From Microthyrium microscopicum (lineage: Eukaryota), in NCBI GenBank assembly GCA_010405405.1, contig MU004234.1, forward strand, positions 811,570 to 831,569: DNA of 20,000 nucleotides, in the 5' to 3' direction. Below, piece after piece: positions 3,594 to 20,000 of this stretch. The notes under the pieces are model-generated. The model did no database searches. It was not told where the DNA came from and saw only the letters and a list, made by a program, of their open reading frames with translations. The translations under genes were made by a program, and so were the position numbers. How positions within the stretch are numbered: the stretch's first letter is position 1; each line of letters opens with the position of its first letter.

Positions 3594-4991
3594 TCATCCT
3601 GATTCTCCCTCATTTACTTCCTCTGCGTTCTCGCGCGTCTGGCGATTGGCAAATACTGCAAGAAGGCTAAGGTCATATACGACCTTCATTCCTCCCGCCA
3701 TCAAGAAAGCAATCCAAAACATATCCCTCTCCACCAGTTGTCCCGTAATTACTGGACCAATACTCTGGGAGGCAGTCTTGACCACATTGATTGCACCCAT
3801 AATGGCTGTCCTTTCGTTCGGTAATAGTATCGCAGCCAAGAAAGCACTACGAGGGGCAGAGTCCATAGATTGAGTACTCGCTCGGAACAACAATAAAGCC
3901 ATGGCCACAGGAAGCGAGGCAGGTAAGCCCAGTGCTGCAAGAGCAATGGAAGACGGTAGGTGGGTGAAAACCATGGTTTTAACGTTCCCGATACGCCTTG
4001 CCAGACTAGCAGCTACAAGCACAGAGATTGCTTGAATGATTGAGGTGGTGAAAAAAAGAGAGCCAAGTAGATTTTCGCTTAATCCGAATCTCCGTTTAAA
4101 GTAGTTCGTGATCCAGGCCAACGGCGCAATACTGGATCCTAGATTGTCCAAGGCAAATAGCAGTGCCAATGTGAGAAATATGCCCCGACTCTCCCTACTG
4201 ATTTGAGGAAGCAGTGGTCTTCTCTGTTGCTTGGACCTCGCACTCGATTGCAAAGTTTGGTTTCCTAGTAGAGGTGTCTCTTCATTGTGAATGGGTTTCG
4301 GCTCTGGTTGGAGCTCGCAAGCGTTGCTTAATATCATTGTAAGGCCCAATTTGATCAGGCCAACGCCGGCGTAGGCAAAGAAAATGACTCGGTACGAAGC
4401 AATAATTTCAAATCCATGGTGAGCTTGGAGTGTATGGACGACCCATCCACAAGCCATCATCCCAATTGCAGCTCCCAGTGATCCAATGAGGTTGTAGTAT
4501 GCAAAGATAGAAGCTCTATCGTCCGGCAGAGAAAGATGAGCCAGTGTTGATTCTTCGATAGCTCTGAAAGGGCCGATTTCGTTGCCTGATGGACTGATGA
4601 TACCCAGTATTGCTGCAGCAAGGAGAATGAAATAGTTGTCAAATAAAGCAAAAATGACACCACTACCAGCCATCATAGCAGCTCCCAAAGCGAGCATGAA
4701 GCGTCTTCCAATACTGTCCGTAATCAAAGTGAGGAAGAAACTGATGAACACATCGCCTATCAGGGTCAATGTCATGAAAAGTCCTATGCGTGTATCTGAT
4801 ATGCCGAGTGTTGATAGGTAGGAGACGAGGATGAGTGTCGAGCCTCCATATGCGATTAAACGGACAAATCTTTGCGCAATCAGCAACTTAATGTCAATGT
4901 TAGAATTGATCAACGCCATCAGCCCAAGCTCTTGAAGAATGTTGACACCAAGCCGAGAGAGCCAGGGCGTCTGCGATGCTTCTTGATCCAT
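3594..4991 (-). CDS. Major facilitator superfamily transporter, ~465 aa, intronless
   Basis: The first in-frame ATG is at 4991 (MDQEASQ). There are two bundles of hydrophobic helices separated by a hydrophilic loop, with MFS motif A-like TDSIGRR and LARRIG. Substrate cannot be inferred. Confidence 0.9.
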   Translation of the reverse strand: MDQEASQTPWLSRLGVNILQELGLMALINSNIDIKLLIAQRFVRLIAYGGSTLILVSYLSTLGISDTRIGLFMTLTLIGDVFISFFLTLITDSIGRRFMLALGAAMMAGSGVIFALFDNYFILLAAAILGIISPSGNEIGPFRAIEESTLAHLSLPDDRASIFAYYNLIGSLGAAIGMMACGWVVHTLQAHHGFEIIASYRVIFFAYAGVGLIKLGLTMILSNACELQPEPKPIHNEETPLLGNQTLQSSARSKQQRRPLLPQISRESRGIFLTLALLFALDNLGSSIAPLAWITNYFKRRFGLSENLLGSLFFTTSIIQAISVLVAASLARRIGNVKTMVFTHLPSSIALAALGLPASLPVAMALLLFRASTQSMDSAPRSAFLAAILLPNERTAIMGAINVVKTASQSIGPVITGQLVERDMFWIAFLMAGGMKVVYDLSLLAVFANRQTRENAEEVNEGESG

Positions 4992-5677
4992 CGTCGAGGA
5001 TATAATGAGATCGTTGGATTTTCCGCAGTCCAGGTACAGTGATGGAGTCAAGCCGTTCGCATTGTCTTGGTCGGCGGCTTCGCCTTATTATAGTGGTGAG
5101 AAGAGTTTCAACCCTTCCTTGATCTGCCAGTGGCGGATCGCTGTAGCCTAAGAGTCGCTTGAACCTTCCGCATTAGGCAATTGCGACGGCATTTCCATGG
5201 CTGTTCGCGAGTCTCGCGCGAGTCACAGCCTCCACAAAGTGGATCGAAGAATATCCTGCTTATCAAGAACCCTCTCCTAGAAATCCTTTTGATTTTTTCA
5301 ATTCAAAAACGAAGTCCGCCAATATCTAAGCAGACTCCATGGTAGAGAACCGCGACTTCGCGAGTATGACAATTTCTCGCGATGGACAATTTTAACAAGA
5401 TAAAAGAAAAGGAGGGTCTCATTCCTACAGAGCTATAGATTGCTGATCAAACTGTTTTCCAAGTAGTCTTGGAATACAGTGTTAAATAGGTTGTGAATTT
5501 ATGTTTCACTAGGGTTGTCAACTTGTCAATACTAACAAGGTAAGCGAACTACTCTCGCCTCGGAAGGATTTGCTTATGAGTCAACGTCTGTTCAACCACC
5601 ACGACTACAACTACCCCTTAAAGTTGCACGCCTAGTTTTCATCAAGACAATATACCAAAAGCTTCTGGAGCTTAACT

Positions 5678-6638
5678 ATGCCGAGACCCACGCCAACTGA
5701 AATTACGTTTCGTGAATGGACTGGAAGCGATATCGTCGGTGTCGCAGAGCTCTTTCTTGTTGCTCCGGACGACGGCACTCTATATCAATTTCCAGAAGCC
5801 AAGAAACATCATCAGGAAATGCTCAGCAAGTTCATACGATATCTGAAGAGTGAGCTATTTAACCGGAAGACTCTCACGCGAATTGCGGACTTACGAACAG
5901 AGTCTGGTGAAAAGATCGTGGGTTTCTCACAGTGGCATCAAAGGGTGAAAGATCCAAAAGGTTCCGACACTTATATGCCAATAGAAGTCTTCCGACCATT
6001 GAGTTTGCAAGACCGTAAGTGTGTATTTTTATCTTTCCGAAATGCCTCTCGGCAGCGTAGCTGTCTTGCAGTCTTTCGTTCAACTCTTTGATTCCGCTCC
6101 TAGATTCTTTCATGAATAGTGTTTGACTGTAACAGTGATAAATTGGCCACTGATGGCACTTGAGGCAACATACAAACAACTCTACTCGTGGCTACACCAA
6201 GAGGCAAATCTAGGCCTCCAGAGGAACCCAAAGAAATCAGAGGCAATTAGAGCAGGAAGGAACCGATCTCCACAATTAGAAAAGTCCATACCATGCTTTC
6301 AACTCTCTGGATTGGCGGTTCACCCGGATCACCAAGGGTTCGGAATTGCAACAAAGCTTGTTCGCTGGGGCATGGATCAAGCAAAAGCTAAGGGCGTCCC
6401 AGTCATCACTGGCGGAGAGGAAAGTGGACTGAAGTTTTACCAGAATGCACTTGGTTTCAAACGCATTCGAGAAAGCGAGTATTGGATCGATCCCGAGGGG
6501 AATAACATTGATAGAGAAGAAGTTGAGAAAGGCAATGATTTATGGAAGAAAGTCAATGGTGGTGTTTCTGGTAGCGATGCCATATGGTGTCCTGACGGAA
6601 TAGAGGTTGATTTGAAAGGATTAACACCTGGTAGTTGA
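5678..6638 (+). CDS. GNAT-family N-acetyltransferase, ~279 aa; exons 5678-6014 and 6136-6638
   Basis: The intron 6015-6135 (GTAAGT...TTGAC...AACAG, phase 1) joins the two track ORFs in frame. Acetyl-CoA motif A is LAVHPDHQGFGIATKLVRWG, followed by GLKFYQNALGFK; IVGFSQW strand in exon 1. Confidence 0.88.
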
Positions 6639-7049
6639 ATGGGAGAAGTACGATTCAATGCATCTTTCGACTAATGCAGCAATGCGCGAGTATTGAGCAC
6701 TTCCCAGTAAGCCGGCAAATGTTGCAGTTGCTCGTGGATGGTTCTTATGTTCCCCCTTTTGTCTACAAAATGCCTTTCTTCTCATACTAATCTCTATCGC
6801 AAAGCTTGGATTTTTTTTTGCAGTTAGTATGCCAGTCAATCCATATCGTGTTGAACACATTGTCCTTTTAATTTTGATATGGGATCGGCACACGGTGGCT
6901 TGCCAGCCATTCGATTTCACTGTACATACGGTTGACAACAAATGCCCGCCATCCTCTTTTCCTTCCGTTCTATAGCTTGTTGCGTATGTCTCTAGACTTC
7001 TGGCTTATTGCACTCTTTTATCAGAAGTCCTAGACTACAGCCTGACACC

Positions 7050-8782
7050 ATGGGAGTCAGCCAATCGACCCATAGCGAAGACGTTGAGGCTCAACAAGAG
7101 CGAGCTGGTATCAATGCCGGCAAGGCTGATGAGAATACGCCTTTACTCTACTACTTGGAGCCGAGACAGCTCGACTTTGAACAATGTGCCAAATTGCACA
7201 ACGGGATTCTCGATCTAGGATGGAATGCCGTGGGCGAGGTTCGTCCTCACAGATCGTGGTGGGAGTACTACTTTGGTCCGCAAGATACAGGTAGGAAAAA
7301 GCCAACTGACCCGGGGCGCTCAATAATTATTAAAGCACAGAACCACAAAACAGCTGGGAGAGGTATAACCGGGATCCCAGTACGGCTACCGAGCTTGAAA
7401 AGCGCTTACCTGAATCCTTGATCAAATTTTTGAAACTGGCTGGTCATGATTATCCAGGACACGATGAAGAAAGAAGTTTCTTTCTATATGTGAAAAGACT
7501 ATGGGAGCCGGCAAATATGATTGCCTGCTTAAATGGGGATGGAGCATATTGGAGTATCAAGAACAAATACATATGCCTATATGAGAGCAACTTTGGAGGA
7601 TTCGTAGTGTGATTATCCACAGCCCTTATTTGTTGTTGTGTTACTGACCTTTTTGCTGCATAGATTCAATATAATCGACATGACGGCGCGAATCACGCAT
7701 GAGGCGGAAAACAAATTATCGCAAATTGTACCTGAGTAAGCTGGTCCTCTTAAATCCGAATGATCATGGTTTTTGGAACATCCAAACGACTGAGAAATGC
7801 CAAGCTAACTCTACATAGAGATGATGAACTCATGCAGCCAGGTATGAAATGGATGACTTTAGAATCGATAATAGAAGCCTTCGTGGAAATGATCGAGCAG
7901 AACCGAGTCATGGTACTACGTGAGGATCCAGATCCCAAAACGCAGTCCCTTGAGGTTAATGGATTTTTCTTCTTATCAACACTGCCTTGGCATCTTTCCT
8001 TAGATGATGAAACTATTGTCAACATAACAGTCGCAGCCTGGGATACCCTTTTATCGGCAGTCGAGTCACGCTTGCCAGCTCAAAAGTCACACCTTATCGA
8101 GTACCAATCTTCTTATAGCGAAGACATTATCGCTTCTTGCGATATTCACGGTTTCTTTCTGAAGAAGTTCCTTCTCAAGGCCAAAGTCCCAAGCTTCAAA
8201 TACGTCGCGCCAGGTCTCAGGACAATACCATCAGAGGAGCTCCACGCCAGCCAACCATTTCAGAATACAGATCTATCTATGCTCTGCACAGATATGTGGA
8301 AGGACCAATGGACCCAGCGTCGATTTAAATACTACCCATTTCTGTTCCTCCATGGCGACACAACTATTTCAGGAGGAAAGAGAGTGCTAGGCTATCCGTG
8401 GGAAAACGCTTCAAAATTCGAGACCGGATTATATCTTCAGCCTTCAGGGTACATTGAGCGACCAGATGGATGTCGGCTCCTCCTCCCATTCTCTATGGCA
8501 CCTGGTGAATGGCAAACATCAAGCCCGATTAAGTTGCGCTATGGTTACGATGGACTGTATCAACCCAAATCATTGACGGTTCAGCATGATCTACTTCCCG
8601 AAGTCCAAGATGAAATAGAGTGTGCGTTACGATTAGAACTTCTGTTCAAGAATTGGACAAGTATGATTGAAAATGGACATTGGGAAGTTGGTGCAGATGG
8701 AGTGATGGGTGGACTTGAGAAGTTCAAAGAAGCTGACACGGGAGGGAATTGGCATCTATATTTTCTAGGAAGAACATGGTGA
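7050..8782 (+). CDS. Uncharacterised fungal protein, ~514 aa; exons 7050-7290, 7341-7608, 7664-7735, 7819-8782
   Basis: Three GT-AG introns (7291-7340; 7609-7663 with ACTGAC branch; 7736-7818 with GCTAAC branch) join three track ORFs into one 1545-nt frame. The N-terminus MGVSQS fits MGxxxS. Motifs include WMTLESIIEAFVEMIE and NWTSMIENGHWEVGADGVMGGLEKFKEADT. Confidence 0.8.
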
Positions 8783-8819
8783 AAATCCTTAAAGCTGTAA
8801 CTCAATTTGCAGTATCCGT

Positions 8820-8964
8820 TGTGAAGGGGCGACCAACAGGGGCTGTTTCAGCCAAGAATAGGTGTTATTTAGATCTCTGAAGGGGCTAAGATTCTGGTTC
8901 CTTAAGCATATTTTAACCAATACAATTACCATTAAATCCTCTATTGCCGCTCCAAGAACTATTA
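8820..8964 (+). repeat. 5' LTR
   Basis: TGTGAAGGGG...GAACTATTA; direct repeat of 9525-9669. Confidence 0.9.
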
Positions 8965-8967
8965 AAT

Positions 8968-8975
8968 TGGGGGCT
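8968..8975 (+). other. Putative primer-binding site, tRNA-Pro-like (TGGGGGCT)
   Basis: Lies 3 nt after the 5' LTR, begins with TGG (complement of CCA) and matches the first 8 nt of the classical tRNA-Pro PBS TGGGGGCTCGTCC. Confidence 0.55.
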
Positions 8976-9524
8976 AAACCATGGACGGCAATATGATCTT
9001 TTATCCTCACATTCTCTTATTAAACGATTTACTACGTTTAAACTAACGGACGCTGACGACGACTAGCCTTTCGTTGCCTTTACCATCATATCTTCATTAT
9101 CGAACGACGACGTCCTTTATTAAGCACTCATTAAAATCCATTAGAACTAGCTGCGTTTGAACTGACGGCAGCATCTTACTCTATAAATTTACTATAAAAT
9201 GGCCCATAGAGAGACAAAGAAGCATAAACCAAACTAGAGCTAATTACATAGTGTTAAACGCATGGGATCACCTGAGTTGAGTCGCTATGGGCTGTTTTGA
9301 TAACTAAATAGAACGGAATGGTTACGGGATTTATATTTGAACGAGGGTCGACGATTCTGGCTATGATTTGGTAGTATGAGGACCTTAGGAGGAATTAGTG
9401 CTTTTAACGAACGAAAAGGGCTGCTAACGAGTGTAATTGAAGGGATGGGCAACAACAACAAACGAGCAAGCTTTTGCTACGAAGATTAAGATTGTATCTT
9501 GACCTTAATTGTCTATGGAATAGT

Positions 9525-9669
9525 TGTGAAGGGGCGACCAACAGGGGCTGTTTTAGCCAAGAACAGGTATTATTTAGATCTCTGAAGGGGCTGAGATTCT
9601 AGTTCCTTAAGCATATTTTAACCAATACAATTACCATCAAATCCTCTATTGCCGCTCCAAGAACTATCA
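9525..9669 (+). repeat. 3' LTR
   Basis: TGTGAAGGGG...GAACTATCA, followed directly by CCGT. Confidence 0.9.
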
Positions 9670-10607
9670 CCGTATGATTATATTTTCTGCACCAACTGAA
9701 TAGAAGAATGACTTGTCGAGCCACTAATAAATAGTGGCTTCGCACCGTGCCGCTCGCTCCCGCCACTTGAAAGACACTAGCCCGATGTCTGTGACCAATC
9801 GAAACCAGGAGCAAAACCGGCTCCCTGCGTGTTTTCCCTTCGACGCATTTTCGTGCTTCCAACGGTGTACCCATTTAGTATAGGTGCATCCTGAGGTGGA
9901 TCCTACCTACAGTGTAAGTCGTCAAAGGCCCCTAGGTGTCAAAACATCAACCTGGCCAACACTACCAACCTCATTTCTCAGTCCTACTGAATACTGACAC
10001 TGGCAAACTGCAAACACCAACAGATTCCAACACTACTACTCAAACTACCGAGATCGTTCATCTTCCTATGGAACACGATTTGAACGATGATCATAGCCAG
10101 GTCATGAAGTGGTACTTCGAGCGTATGGGTGCTGGAGGAGGTTTTCGTCTTCCATGGTGGCGCTTCTATACATAACAAAGGAGATGGCGGGGATAGCAAT
10201 TGGCGATATTCTGGCAACGTAAAAGCTGCGAATGAGAGCTTTGCTCAGTTCGGATCTATTGCATGTTCAAGTTTCGCTTTGATTAAGAATACAGTAATGG
10301 CTTCATAGAGTATCGCAGCCCAGACTGTTGATGTTAAGGATGGGGTCTGCTCTGTAGAATACACCCACACACCCGGACACCCCCTGGCATATGTTCGAAG
10401 GTTGTTACGGGCCAATCACAAGAAGAATAGTTGCTTCGATTAGCAATCCCTACTAATGCAGTATTCTAGATGACGATTAGACTATATCCCATTGAAAACT
10501 AAGATTCCATTTCTCCATAATCGTCCAGTCACTTGCACGCGAGCACATCGAGCCTTACAGCCTTTTGTGGATTACGACTTGCATACTTCCACATGGCTAC
10601 CTAGGTA

Positions 10608-10823
10608 CACAACGGCATGGCAAAATTAATGGCGTACTCCCATCAAGTTTGATGGCGCGCAGACGCTACGGTCTGTCATCGAGTGCTTTATTTGCTATAA
10701 AGGGCGTTCGGATTGGGAATATTTATCAGATAGGATGGGAATTCAAGCACCTTTTGGCTAGCAGCGCTAGCGGTAGCCATTAGAGTTGATGGGATTACGC
10801 CATTTATTTCGCCATGCCGTTGG
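10608..10823. mobile_element. Fold-back element with ~50-bp terminal inverted repeats; probable Tc1/mariner-type MITE (alternatively a hairpin RNA locus)
   Basis: 10605-10656 versus the reverse complement of 10776-10826 matches at 45/52 positions. TA dinucleotides flank the element at 10606-10607 and 10824-10825. No credible ORF. Confidence 0.6.
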
Positions 10824-11586
10824 TACATTACCGATGACCATTGAGCAGACTTCCAAAGTTCTGATATACCCTCTATTGCTTATGACACAACTCCCAACCC
10901 CTTATCTTTTCTTCAGTTTATCGCTCCTAGACCATCATAAATATCATGAATAGCGAGTAAGAGGGCTGATAGAAAACCAAGACGACAAGAATAAGTATCT
11001 ATAGTTAGATCAAATTGATGACTTGTGCACCGCACCTAACGATATTATATTACCATTTTATCGGAAGATGCCGCCGATGATGCGTCTATTCCTAGATTCT
11101 GTATTGAAGTGCGAAACTGCTACTCATCAATTTTCAAATTAGTTTTGCTATGCGATCCTTTTGATTATATTTTCTATTCCAAAAAGCAGTCTTCAAGATT
11201 ATATGTCCGCGATTCGAATCAAAATATGATAACGACAAGGCTAAATGCTCAATATAGAAATAAGCGGGTTGATAGAGCGCTTGGCAATTGCCCTATAAGG
11301 TTCTTGTATTTGGTCATTGCTTAATATACACAGATGCAATGACTTCATTTACACCGTGATAAAATAGGTAGATATCCGGACTTGAATTGTATCTCCGTAC
11401 TATCTCTGAGACAGCACAGTCTATCGCTACACCAAGATCGTACCTTGATAATTGGTTTCGTCACTATTTCCGGAAAGTGTCTATAAAGACTTTGATGAGC
11501 AATCGCGCCGATTGTCAAATAATTGATTCTTCGATTTCCATCACTCGCTAAATCAGCCATATTAACCGATTTGGATTTGCGTCATT

Positions 11587-13140: not shown

Positions 13141-13803
13141 GGACAGACAGCTACATGACAAAATAACTGGCGTTCTCCCATTAGCGTCGATGGCTCCTAC
13201 GAACGCTGTCAATCAAAAGATGTTATATTTCCCATCGCATTCAATAAATTGCCCAAGTCTGAACGCACTTAGTAGTTGATAAAGCACTTAATAACAGCTC
13301 GTCTTATATAGGAGCCATCGTACTCGCTGGGAGCGCGCCATTTGTTTTGTCATCCCCTTGGACAGAGTAGCTCATAGCAAGAGAACCCGAGATAGGAATA
13401 ACTCTTCTGCTTCTATACAATACTTGATTTTACCTTGCTCGCCCTTATCAGCAGGGATAACGTTACCGAATGCTCCTCTAGCCTCGAGGTTTTCCCTTCT
13501 CCAGTAATTTCCTCAACGAAGCACTACTTCCAAAGAAGGAGCTACAGGTCACTTACGCTTCCTAAGGTACAGATCTATTGCATAAAGAAGGTTGCTCTCG
13601 TGAACAGGATAGATTCGAGATCTTGGCTTGGGTCAATGAGAACCATGACATACAGTCAAACTTTTCCCCTAGAAAATGAGAGGGAGGTTGGGCGCTGTAC
13701 AACTTAACAATTGGTGCCCTATGACAGTGGTTCTGGTCCTTTGCTAGATAGGAAGGCGTTTTCTGTCCAAAAGTAGCACTTATACACTAGAGTCTAGCCT
13801 AGA

Positions 13804-13836
13804 TACCTACCTTAGGTACTTACCTGCCTTAGGTAC
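13804..13836. repeat. 16-bp tandem duplication at the isochore boundary
   Basis: TACCTACCTTAGGTAC (13804-13819) and TACCTGCCTTAGGTAC (13821-13836), with one TG/TA difference. Confidence 0.7.
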
Positions 13837-14081
13837 CATAGCGCGCGACGGGGGGTAGAGGACATAATATCTACAATCTCTCTATAGTATTCTTTCCAGC
13901 CAGTACCTAGTATATACTTAATCAAAAAATACTATCATAGGAGACATAGTTTTATTTATAAAAAAGTATGTCTATAATAAATCATGTCCTAGTATTCTAT
14001 ATAGGCAAAAAAAATATGTATAAGAAGATTAGTTAATAAATAAAGAAGGCGCAAATTTATAAGGTTCTAAGAAAGGAAAAC

Positions 14082-14141
14082 ACGAAAATACGAAAATACG
14101 AAAATATAATGACACTATAAAAATACGGAATTACGAAAATT
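14082..14141 (+). repeat. Short tandem repeat (ACGAAAAT)x3 plus degenerate copies
   Basis: Three exact copies at 14082-14105, plus ACGGAATT and ACGAAAAT near 14125-14140. Confidence 0.75.
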
Positions 14142-15304
14142 ATAAGATATAACGAGTTGGGTTAGGCTACGTAATCTAAATAATAAATATCTTTACTAAA
14201 ATATTAGGCTAAGATTACTAATACTAAAATAGATACTAGTATCTTTATAAATATATACCCCTTTATATCTTATCCTTTAGCTACCCTTTCTAAAATTCTT
14301 TTTACTTTTTCTTTATCTCTTATCGTAATCCTTCTAAACTTATTAAAGTATATAAGCAGTATATAATGTCGTAAAGTAGATATAATAGCTTCTTTATGTC
14401 TTATTTTAGACATTGTAGCTATACTCTAGCTAAAGTAGAACATTGTAAGATTTACTAACACTACTTTAGCATTATTACCTCTTCCCTCCCCCTCCGCCCT
14501 ATAGTATTTAAGTTAGATACTCTGTAGTTACTATAAGGTTTATTCTAATATTAGTCCGTCGTTCTAGAACTTAGTACCTCTTACTTGCAATCTATAGATG
14601 CTTTTTTATTTATTTTTCGTAGTGCTTGCATGTCTAATAATATATAAGGCGTATAGGTAAACTTGTATTATAAGAATATAAGAAATAAAGCGTAGTTGAT
14701 TACTATGAGAGTCTAAAGGCTTAATATAGTTTTTAGGATATACTAATTAGGAGATTATATTATCTTTAATTAGGTTCTATAATTATCTAATTTCTTAATA
14801 TATTCTTTATTATAATATTCTTCTTTACTAGTATAAACTCTTTTAAAATTATAAATCCTATAACTATAACTTTAATAAATAAGTAAAATAAAAAGAATAT
14901 TATAATAACTAATAAAGAACCTTTACTTAGGAACTAGGTTTATTACTTTAGCTATACTAGATAGTAATCTTAAAAATATTATTCTCTAAGAACTTTTCTT
15001 AAGATCTTAGTTAACCTATTATAAATAGTATTTAAGTATTTATAGCTCTTTAATCCTTTTAGAAAGATTTATCTATATAGGAGCTATTAGTAGTAATATA
15101 TTAAGAAATTATAAGAAGTTTATATAAGTATACTAAGGTTACTTAATTTAGTAAAGAATATATATAATCTACGTATTAAGGCTTTAAAAAGTAAAGTTTA
15201 TAAAAAGTAATATATAAGTAGTAATAAAAAACTAGGTAGTAATTACTAGTTTAAGTAAATATAAGAATAAGAGCTTAATTTTATATTTATAAAGCTTTAT
15301 AATT

Positions 15305-16735
15305 TATTATCTTTTCTTTTTCTTTTTTATTATACTTTTATAATACTTTTAAGCTATTATGAATCTTATTTATTATCTTTTAGCTACGCTAATGGGCTAT
15401 GTAGACGCTACTCTTACTTTTAGAAAAACCCCTATAGGGAAACCTATAATATTCCTTTAGTTACCTTCTAGTAGCCTTATTCTATTATTGTTGTGATACC
15501 CTCTTAGTCTATTGCTTCTAAATAGAAGGACTTATATTATCTCTCTATAAACTATAAGCCTACTAAAGGAATTTTAGTTAGTAGGTTAATATAGTGGGTA
15601 ACTAGTAGTTGCTAATCGCTAAAGGCCCTATGTAGCTTAAGTATGCTATACGTTATATAGATTCTATGCTACGCGTTAGGATCTTAATCCTTAATACTAT
15701 CCCTATTACTAGTTTCCCTTTTAGGACTTATTTATTACTTAATTACTTAAGGCTATAGCGTCCCTTAAAATAAGTTAGATCTAGCTTCTTAGCGCCTATT
15801 TCTATTTAGTGTTGCCTTATTATTAAGTTTTACTATTATAGTTTGACGAGTTCTTATTAATCTTTCCCTTCTTAAGAGCTTATAGCTATTATCCTCGTAT
15901 AGTTAATTTTCTATGTAATTTTATAATAGGCGTATATAATGTATATTTCTAAGTTTTTATAATTAATTTCTGCCCTTAATAGGCTTTAGTATTATTATAA
16001 CCCTTAGCTATATTAAGCCCTCTCTTTTAATACTTATTAAGCGAGGTATCTATAATACCCCTTAGCTAAGTTTTCCCTATTAATTTATACTCTTTAATAC
16101 TATATAATAGGCTACTAAATAGCTACCTCTAAGTTTCTAGTAGTCTATATAGTCTACCTTTAGAGTATAAAGCATTTTAAATCTGCGTAGTTTTAGTTAC
16201 TTCTTTTTTTCTAAGTTTCTATTATATCTTCTACTCTTCTTAATTCCTCTTTTAAGGGTAAGTCTTTTATAAGCTCTCTTTCCTTCTCTTCTTTACGCCT
16301 TTAGGTACTTAGTAAACGTCCTACGCCTATAGGTACCTTTCTTCTATTATCTTTAAAGAAGGCAAAAACTATTCTATCTATAGACGTTAAAAATATTACT
16401 TTATTCTTAGATATAAAATTAGCTAGTTTTATCTTAGCTCCTATTATAAGTCTTTTAGTATCCTTTTGTATATAGTATTAACTATTATAATATAGACTAT
16501 ATGCGCCTTTAGCGTAAGAATCTATTTATACTATTTTTAAGCGTTATACTATTATATAAAGTTACTTAATAGTAAGCACCTAGTTAATCTTAGCGCGCTT
16601 GCTATAATAATTACTTATATCTATAGTTAGGCTAGCCTTAGCTAGCGTCCTTACTCTTATTATAAAGAGTAACGTTCTAAGTATAAGGCTATAAGTGTTT
16701 CCTTATTCTTAATCTTTTGCCTTTTCTAATATTAT
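15305..16735 (-). pseudogene. RIP-destroyed coding-like relic of unknown identity
   Basis: The purine-rich minus strand reads as protein-like (e.g. RRKEEKERELIKDLPLKEELRRVEDIIET; IIGFPIGVFLKVRVAST). Stops read in this frame are TAA/TAG, and one apparent frameshift falls at an A7 run near 16204-16210. No family motif recognised; boundaries approximate. Confidence 0.4.
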
Positions 16736-17054
16736 AGTAAGATGCTAGTAAAGTTAAAGGAGTAGAGTAAGTGCTTTTAACGCACCTTTAATAAGATAAT
16801 AGCTAACCTAGTTAACCCTTATTAAGGTATTAAGGAGTATATATTATTAGGTATAAATAAAAAGGCTACTAAATAAGTAAAGGTTATAGAGAGTTTAGTA
16901 AGTAAGTTTACTAGCCGTAGGGCCTAGTTTACTTCTATTATAGCCTTACTAGCGTAGTGAAAGAAGAAGAAGCTAAAGGTTAATATAGCTATATTAGCTA
17001 CTAATTTAGCTTATCTATAAGCTATCTTACTAGAGCTTTACGCTTAAAGTGTAA

Positions 17055-20000
17055 AGATAGATTTATTAATAGAGATATCTTAGTTATTAGGTAGGGTAGT
17101 AGCGTTATTTAATAAAAAGTAGTAAATAAATATAGAATAAAATTAATTACGTTCTTAGACTTAGTTATTTCCTTTATAATTATATATTACTAGTCTATTA
17201 GTACTATAGTATTATAATTAGTTATTTATAGAATCCTTAAGTCTTAATAGTTCTTTATGCGCCTTAAGGTCTATTTTTATAATCTTTTTAATTAGCCTAA
17301 ATTACTAAAGAGTTCTACTCTTTAGTAGCTATTTAGCTACTACCTAGGTATTTCTTAGATTAGAGAGTATATAGGCCTTATTTAGTATTATTACTTATTC
17401 TAGTAATCTTTCTCTATAATATTATAAGTAGTTTAGTAGTATATAGTAAACTATTTATTACTAGTAACTATATAGGTACTATAATAGGAAGATTATTAGT
17501 ACTTATACGCTATATAGCTAGTTATTAAATTTAATAACTTTTAATTATATAAGGAAGAGCGCTATTACTTATGCTTTGTTAAGACTATTATAAAGCTTAA
17601 TTAGTTAGTTGCTTTATAACGTTTTCTATGTTATAGTAGTATATCGCTACGTCCTTATAAGCTATACTTAAGTATTTATTTAGAGCTTATAATAATATAC
17701 CCTAATTAGAGACATCTCTAGTTCTAGTTTAGTTTTTACTTCCTTCTTCTTCTATAGCGTATTATCTATTAGTTACGTTGCTTGTCTATAATTAGTATCC
17801 TACTTTTGCTTTATTTCTAATCTCTTCTTTTATTACTTTAGCGTATTAATTCCCTAAGCTATGATCTTAGTTACGTGTATCTATACTAGTTTAAGTATTA
17901 TTAGGCTTCTTAGTTATTACTACTAGGAAGGTGTCCTCTAGTTCCTTAGGAGGTTCGCCTAGTATACTTTAATAATAATTTTGCTTATCTTTTATATTAC
18001 TATTAAGTCTTTATTCTTATTAGTATATTCCTTTGCTAAGACTGTAGCGTTTATTTAAAGTAGTTTAATTCCTATTTCCTTATTTAATAAAGTAATAGAA
18101 GTTTTTTAGTATCCTTTTATTATCTTATAGAGTATATTATTCTAAACTACTATTAGTAGTTTATAATAATCTTCTAGCGCCTTAAGGGATAGTAATCCTA
18201 GACTCTATACTTATACTCTATATATAAGGGTTAGCCTAACAACTACTATATAAAGAAGCTTTATCTTTCTAAAGACTAGTCTCTATCCTAACTATACTAT
18301 TCTTAAAAGTACTACTACTTACTTAAATCCTTTAGTTCTAGTCTTTTTAATATAGTCTTTCTAGTTTATTTTTCTATCTACTTATATACTTAGTATCCTA
18401 ATACTCTCTAATATAAGCTTAGCAAATATACTATCTACTATTACTATAGATTATAAGTTTACTTCTAAGTAGTAAATATTCTAAATAAAGTATATTACTT
18501 AGTACTTATTAGGGGCAAACTTTACGCTATATTTAGTTACTTAGTTAGCGCACTTTTAGTAGGCCTCTTCTAGTCTTATATAGTTCTCTTAAGTAATATT
18601 ACCCTATATAACTAATATAGTGTTATCTATAAACCTAAATCTAAAGACGTTATTACTTACGTTCTAGAAGTATTCTAGTAGTTCTAATATAAAGAAGAGG
18701 AAGAAGATAGGTAAGAGGGGGGATTCCTAAGGGATCCCTATATTAATTATTATTATTAGGCTTTAGTACTTAGCAAATATAATTTAGGTTGTATAATTAG
18801 TAGTAAAGCTTACTACTATGTTAATTAGCTACTAGGGGACTCCCTTTATCTCTAGGATATAAAGGAGTCTTCTTAGATTAACGTTATTATACGCCTCTTA
18901 AAAGTTAAGGCTAAGTGCTAATACTATAGCTCTTACGTTTCCCTTTTATACTACCTTAATAGCACTCTTTAGGAGCTATATTACTATTAGCATTAACTAC
19001 CCTACTCTAGCTTTTATCTAGTTCTAGGATAGTAAGTTGTTATCTTCTATAAGTTGGGTAAGTTTATTAGTAATAATCTTTTTAACTAGCTTTACTATAG
19101 TATTCTTAAGGGTAATTAGCTAGTAGGCTAATAGTAGTAAGTAGTCTTTTTTATCTAGCTTTTTTAGTACTAGCGTATAGAATTGCTTTAGGTATTCTAG
19201 GATTATGCTGCTTATTAGTATTCTGCTAATTATAGGTGCTAGTCTTTTACTAAATTCTATTAGTTTTAGATTATTATCCTCTTTTTTAGGCTACGCCTTA
19301 AGCTTAAGAGCCTTTAGGACCTTATTTAGTATATTAATAGGTTTTATCGCCTTACGATTTAGGAAGCTATTAATTACGTAATCTATCTCTTCTGCTATTA
19401 CCTTATAGTCTATCTCTAGTTCTAAGGGTAGGATGGCGTCCTCTATGTCGCTTAGGTTTATTGCCTTAGTTTAAAAAAAGAACTTTATAGATAGTATATT
19501 TACCTTACCTTAGTTATTATAGGTATAATTATTACTAGTTATCTATCTAAGTGCTAATAGGTGTAGGTCTTCCTTTAGTTTACTAGCTTTAGCTCTTATT
19601 TATTTGCTTATTCTTTATAAGCCTTAGTTCTTATAGCGCTTATAATCCTCTATAATCTCTTTTATAAAAGTTTACTAGGATACTACTTTATTTTAACGTA
19701 GAGATTTCCTTAGCTAAGCCGTAATTAATTTATATATATACTTATCCTAGTCGTTCCTTATTTAGAGATATCTTCTCTTTATGTAGCGCTTCTTCTATAT
19801 TAGTAAAGTAGTTATAGGCAACTACCTATATAAAGCTTACTTTAAGGGTTTTACTTTTAGGTAGTGAATCTCTAGTACTTCTATTATTACTTTATGTAGA
19901 GCCTTTATTAGTATATTTTTAGTATCCTATAAGCTATTATTTATATATTTAATAAATTATTCTATATCTAGTTTTTATATATTATACTATACTTTTAGTA
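17055..20000 (-). mobile_element. RIP-inactivated non-LTR retrotransposon (LINE, Tad1-like) ORF2 3' part: linker, reverse transcriptase, CCHC zinc knuckle, 3' UTR; 5' part beyond window
   Basis: Minus-strand relic motifs occur in correct order: KAIKPINILNKVLK (KAxGPxxIPNEVLK, ~19320-19355); LKKLDKKDY and AY*LITLKNTIVKLVK (YRPITL, ~19081-19165); LNF*EAYNNV (LDxxGAYDNV, ~18882-18911); GIP*ESPLLPIFFLFF (GIPQGSPLSP, ~18691-18738); GFVDD relic FIDN (18622-18633); KFAPNKY (~18503-18523); RILSI*VD (~18377-18400); C-P-C-G..H..C relic (17428-17478). The 3' end near AATAAATCTATCT is approximate. Confidence 0.9.

Follow-up and report, generated by a model that had tools for sequence, protein, structure and literature searches.

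The locus considered here raises the question of whether a short segment bounded by two direct repeats, situated close behind a gene of Microthyrium microscopicum, is a miniature retroelement that inserted in one piece, and whether it belongs to a family of such units. The window, i.e., the whole stretch of 20,000 nt that was analysed, contains a sole strong direct repeat according to the repeat search, namely a pair of 145 nt at 8818-8962 and 9523-9667 with 96% identity. The unit bounded by this pair and the gene before it comprise the following features:

7760..8782, plus strand: last exon of a conserved hypothetical protein gene (matches a 514-aa protein that carries the label Microthyrium microscopicum, at 100% identity)
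8816..8819, no strand: left target-site duplication CCGT (read directly; identical to 9670-9673)
8820..8964, plus strand: 5' LTR, 145 bp, TG..TA (repeat search and pairwise comparison; the alignments of sample copies begin at 8816-8818)
8940..8995, plus strand: possible U5-leader stem around the LTR end and the putative primer-binding site, weak (folding against shuffles)
8965..9524, plus strand: interior of 560 bp, non-coding, its composition mildly of the RIP type (open reading frames, Pfam, dinucleotide indices)
8968..8975, plus strand: putative primer-binding site TGGGGGCT, 3 nt past the 5' LTR (read directly)
9517..9523, plus strand: weak polypurine-like tract GGAATAG (read directly)
9525..9669, plus strand: 3' LTR, 145 bp, TG..CA (the contig of another copy departs from the window sequence exactly after 9669)
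9670..9673, no strand: right target-site duplication CCGT (read directly)

Terminal repeats and target site

The preliminary description of this DNA had proposed a miniature LTR element with 145-bp repeats, TG..CA ends and CCGT on both flanks. When the repeats are read from TG to CA, the LTRs occupy 8820-8964 and 9525-9669 and agree at 138 of 145 positions, their length being that given earlier; the repeat as detected begins at 8818 because GT stands before both LTRs. The 3' LTR terminates in ..ATCA, while the 5' LTR terminates in ..ATTA owing to a C>T change in a CpA. Thus, terminal direct repeats of the kind that characterises TRIMs (approximately 100-250 bp, with TG..CA ends) are present, the 5' LTR having become TG..TA via CpA>TpA.

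CCGT was indeed read at 8816-8819 and 9670-9673. With inner and outer flanks taken separately, the 5' copy is bordered by CCGT / AATT and the 3' copy by TAGT / CCGT, and no duplication encloses either repeat by itself. The match is therefore limited to the outer flanks (CCGT/CCGT), for which the chance is approximately 1/256 if the ends are fixed, and this is as expected for the insertion of the whole 850-bp unit in one piece. A target-site duplication around the whole unit, another TRIM characteristic, is thus found, although its length, known from one complete copy, is 4 bp and not the 5 bp usual in fungi.

Interior, primer site and other architectures

The absence of gag and pol from the 560-bp interior, as previously asserted, was borne out: the longest stop-free frame within 8965-9524 amounts to 65 aa, and a Pfam comparison of all six frames, read through stops, gave no match of any kind at a curated cut-off (best E 0.034). 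A short interior lacking these genes is likewise what TRIMs possess. An 18-nt imperfect direct repeat is located within the interior, at 9032-9049 and 9151-9168.

The sequence right after the 5' LTR is AATTGGGGGCT, and the spacer AAT lies between the LTR and TGGGGGCT (8968-8975), which was found at the 3-nt distance given for it earlier. The putative primer site comprises 8 nt, and its TGG part is generic; the 8-mer would fit the 3' end of tRNA-Pro, as the preliminary description had proposed. ARAGORN detected no tRNA genes in the 20,000-nt window. At the other end of the interior, GGAATAG (9517-9523), which had also been called weak before, consists of purines at six of seven positions, is interrupted, and is followed by a T and then by the 3' LTR. 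A stem pairing 8940-8954 with 8981-8995 is predicted to fold with an MFE of -18.2 kcal/mol (z -2.06), a stability equalled by 9 of 200 shuffles, and the 8 nt paired at its core (8942-8949 with 8985-8992) are about what would be expected by chance. The predicted stem, which would enclose the end of the LTR together with the putative primer-binding site, surpasses shuffled sequence only weakly.

Several other architectures were considered and rejected. A MITE or DNA transposon does not fit a region (8000-10500) in which no inverted repeats were found, and the split direct repeats of a DIRS/Ngaro type are absent, 268 of 300 and 239 of 300 shuffles scoring as well. A Helenus/Cassandra-type TRIM (TRIMp3) was discarded since no part of the LTR is derived from a tRNA or 5S sequence and ARAGORN listed no genes; a search of Rfam over 8700-9800 returned no matches even at E up to 10. 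For self-priming of the Tf1 type, the longest complement of the 30 nt after the LTR within the element is 8 nt, which is close to chance, and a palindrome of the GalEa type after the LTR is absent by reading. Longer LTRs masked by indels were looked for by gapped alignment of 80 nt outside each LTR end, and nothing was found. The search for a helper in the window, also for one degraded by RIP, gave nothing: the six frames of the AT-rich block at 13801-20000, read through stops, contain no Pfam families. A hidden copy of the element in the rest of the window was sought by comparison in a purine/pyrimidine alphabet, where the score of 51/60 against a null maximum of 50 is not above shuffles.

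Copies in public contigs

Public contigs were aligned to window positions 8000-10500 at 80% likeness. The locus was found in three runs of one sample (X1, X2 and X4), which is probably the window's own source and thus does not constitute independent support; the data on other copies consist of the contigs of that one sample and two small contigs of run X5. Summed contig depth, which is not copy number and is read here only as "repeated" or "not repeated", is level across the flanks (1011 in X4, 128 in X1, and 347 in X2) and reaches 4-10 times the flank value in the LTR bins of the three runs (4184-10168 vs. 1011 in X4). At a likeness of at least 80%, the interior bins 9092-9259 and 9344-9511 are back at flank depth, and single-copy depth prevails over most of the interior, the final 180 bp ahead of the 3' LTR included.

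Among those listed, contigs with other flanks begin to match at 8816-8817 (three loose-end flanks) and cease to match at 9669 in one case and at 9654, where the LTR tail has diverged, in two, the total of loose ends exceeding the listed ones by 20. The LTR is thus repeated in the sample at several loci that have different flanks, and its boundaries are constant (8816-8818 and 9669). The feature proves to be real, its limits had been drawn correctly, and the proposal of a non-coding, LTR-bounded unit with insertion-type ends is supported.

One contig, present in all three runs, skips from 9070 to 9277 and then passes from 9324 back to 8818, i.e., it consists of interior patches (approximately 9035-9070 and 9277-9324) joined directly to an LTR start. 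This rearranged sibling is the sole other contig of the sample that shares interior patches, and at its LTR joint (9324>8818) it carries GGAATGG (9316-9322), which resembles the GGAATAG before the 3' LTR. The sibling has a related but shorter interior. Most of the remaining copies have the appearance of solo LTRs, or of LTRs that belong to something else. A family of whole units of approximately 850 bp is therefore weakly supported, resting on a single rearranged sibling because most of the interior is single-copy.

Run X5, the only one from another study, is labelled as another organism. One of its two small contigs is an LTR-like piece of 50 nt whose flank differs, and neither contig spans the insertion site; it seems that the same or a very close fungus is present in X5 at a low level. 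Exact-pattern scans of a metagenome contig collection with stretches of the LTR gave no matches.

Origin of the unit

Three things, namely its anatomy, an LTR that recurs with constant boundaries, and the sibling, favour one reading as the best: the segment is probably a non-autonomous LTR retroelement, 850 bp long and of the TRIM type, composed of a 145-bp LTR, a 560-bp non-coding interior and another 145-bp LTR. Within this context, the whole unit would have been inserted once in a RIP-competent dothideomycete, 34 bp past the stop codon of a gene, with duplication of CCGT. Its transcript would start in the 5' LTR, reverse transcription would be primed near TGGGGGCT, and plus-strand synthesis would proceed from the GGAATAG tract; an autonomous LTR retrotransposon would supply the reverse transcriptase and the integrase for copying. 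Integration via a 4-bp staggered cut would follow the established mechanism of LTR retrotransposons. Repeat-induced point mutation (RIP) would then have struck after insertion, and the LTR family would persist at a low copy number, mostly as solo LTRs accompanied by at least one rearranged sibling.

It is unlikely that the unit is instead a one-off remnant of an autonomous LTR retrotransposon, produced by internal deletion or recombination, and not a propagating miniature family. The low copy number of the family is compatible with such a remnant, as are the flank-level depth of 9092-9259 and 9344-9511 and the occurrence of interior patches in only one other contig. Nonetheless, the six frames retain no trace of gag or pol, and the sibling keeps the interior-to-LTR layout with a different internal deletion. 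Moreover, full-length relatives carrying this LTR would make the stretch by the 3' LTR repeated, whereas it is single-copy.

A possible insertion-site preference

The borders of the other copies bear on how the LTR has spread. Those in a 5' or solo context have (C)GT directly ahead of TGTG, as does the window copy, and two other copies read ..ATCA followed by CCG. In hand counts that used 30-letter consensus strings only, an upstream flank in X1 matches window 8797-8819 at 18 of 30 ungapped positions (offset 3), and one in X5 at approximately 15 of 22 with two gaps. The shared (C)GT and the similar upstream flanks are not predicted by random integration; either the integration machinery prefers such a site, or some copies have spread with a little flank.

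With regard to the first option, it is conceivable, though rather doubtful, that integration of this family is markedly biased towards a target sequence (approximately ..AGTA(T/A)C followed by (C)CG(T/C)), with a 4-bp duplication. If true, this would imply a helper integrase with sequence-directed targeting, and the combination of such targeting with a 4-bp duplication was not met in a non-exhaustive search of the literature. Of all that this locus offers, only these signs of a favoured target combined with a 4-bp duplication merit a further look.

The same borders could also be explained by a non-retroviral route, through site-specific insertion at a CCG(T/C) core or through duplication with a short flank, in which case the CCGT pair would not be a classical target-site duplication. 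Such spread would account for alignments that begin at 8816-8817, with (C)CGT before TGTG, for the two copies in which CCG follows ..ATCA, and for the two upstream flanks that resemble the window, this likeness being a matter of hand counts on short consensus strings. However, it is quite unlikely, given that the repeat begins at the same base after an interior tract in the two contexts of a 3' LTR, at window 9523 and where the sibling joins 8818. Furthermore, within the window itself the sequences ahead of the two LTRs are unrelated (111 of 500 shuffles do equally well), one other copy has a different tetranucleotide after 9669, and neither split direct repeats nor inverted ends are present.

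Two independent insertions of a 145-bp short repeat (a solo LTR, SINE or similar) in the same orientation and by chance 560 bp apart are highly improbable. The much stronger repetition of the 145-bp unit than of the interior would suit this reading, but a duplication flanks only the whole unit and not either copy by itself, the sibling contig carries interior and LTR together, and an A-rich tail or pol III-type part is missing.

Repeat-induced point mutation

The element bears the footprint of RIP. All seven differences between its LTRs are CpA>TpA or TpG>TpA, the 5' LTR having undergone four of the changes and the 3' LTR the other three; as RIP-type changes make up 20 of the 435 possible LTR substitutions, the chance of seven out of seven is approximately 4e-10. 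One of these changes converted the terminal CA of the 5' LTR into TA. The two members of the interior repeat (9032-9049 / 9151-9168) differ at three positions, each of which is TpG vs. TpA. The indices of the interior (TpA/ApT 1.06 and (CpA+TpG)/(ApC+GpT) 0.90) fall on the RIP side of the flank values (0.58-0.83 and 1.23-1.46, respectively), i.e., its composition is mildly of the RIP type. Since no LTR difference falls outside the RIP type, ordinary divergence is nil and LTR divergence is unusable for dating the insertion. The element is most likely dead now.

According to the accessible part of PMC8549362, RIP in N. crassa is impaired below approximately 400 bp and below 80% identity. If these limits are valid here, the RIP marks on an 850-bp unit suggest that a near-identical partner of similar length once existed. 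Further along the window, the block at approximately 13800-20000 is AT-rich, with 25-29% G+C from approximately 14 kb onward, and its composition between approximately 14 and 20 kb is heavily of the RIP type (TpA/ApT 1.80; (CpA+TpG)/(ApC+GpT) 0.19).

Comparison with known elements

TRIMs have been described in plants, animals and fungi, as stated in the available sections of PMC6934838 and PMC10886601. Among Dothideomycetes, nine TRIMs are given for Cochliobolus heterostrophus in the portion of PMC4112212 at hand, and the accessible text of PMC8549362 counts 793 copies of RLX_TRIM_Sinope across 348 isolates of Parastagonospora nodorum, in which recent expansions were driven by a TRIM family. 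Thus, TRIMs are already reported in this class. For a fungus that has received little study, the window element extends the catalogue of repeats by one small LTR family; among the matches listed by a full-text literature search, no paper dealt with repeats or transposons of Microthyrium microscopicum. Because TRIMs are documented in related fungi, no long-standing question is opened by this finding.

The element shares with TRIMs the short LTRs with TG..CA ends, the short non-coding interior, a site in the position of a primer-binding site, a flanking duplication, a total length below 1 kb and a position beside a gene, and GGAATAG would be a weak counterpart of their purine tract. It differs in that its family is very low-copy. 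The authors of the P. nodorum study suggest, in the part of PMC8549362 that is accessible, that TRIMs below 400 bp escape RIP, whereas the window element, at 850 bp, is long enough for RIP. It thus provides an example of RIP on an 850-bp non-autonomous element in which a gene 34 bp away was spared.

The overall TRIM layout also resembles that of Helenus, Cassandra and Ajax, which are TRIMs whose LTR holds a pol III promoter derived from a small RNA; in contrast, the window LTR has no tRNA-like or 5S-like part. Helenus is present in fungi (rusts and some Agaricomycetes), and duplications measure 5 bp for the Helenus TRIMs of fungi and plants and 4 bp for animal TRIMs, as far as the available text of PMC10886601 goes, whereas 5- or 6-bp duplications are given for fungal Copia families in the accessible parts of PMC4112212 and PMC5445492. 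The duplication of the window element, seen in a single complete copy, is 4 bp and thus departs from the values that these three partly available sources give for fungal Helenus (5 bp) and fungal Copia families (5 or 6 bp).

With fungal GalEa Copia elements, as presented in the available part of PMC5445492, the window element has in common LTRs bordered by TGT..CA, the GalEa range of 138-311 bp including 145 bp. However, the same part of that source describes a conserved palindromic 9-mer directly after the GalEa 5' LTR, which replaces the primer-binding site, and a 5-bp duplication, whereas the window element has AATTGGGGGCT at this place and a 4-bp duplication. In addition, GalEa encodes a polyprotein, while the window element encodes nothing.

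Genomic neighbourhood

The open reading frame at 7760-8782 corresponds to the C-terminal part of the 514-aa protein, and both end at the same residues; the element is therefore situated 34 bp behind the stop codon of an intact gene. The conserved family of this upstream gene has no Pfam domain; with E values up to 1e-3 there are 16 relatives, most of them in JGI data, and their C-terminal ends all share a similar motif. An MFS transporter and a TrAA12-like protein are further neighbours. The intergenic segment 9808-9987 is matched without differences by a 180-nt contig of run X5, with a depth of approximately 3.

The 10-mer TATATTTTCT occurs on both sides of the element, at 8757-8766 (inside the end of the upstream open reading frame) and at 9679-9688; this flanking pair is probably due to chance, as 10 of 300 shuffles score as well. 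A MITE-like unit is located further downstream, at 10605-10827. Its 47-nt terminal inverted repeats (10610-10656 and 10776-10822) are 87% complementary and are separated by 119 nt, and GTACA stands directly on both sides of them (10605-10609 and 10823-10827).
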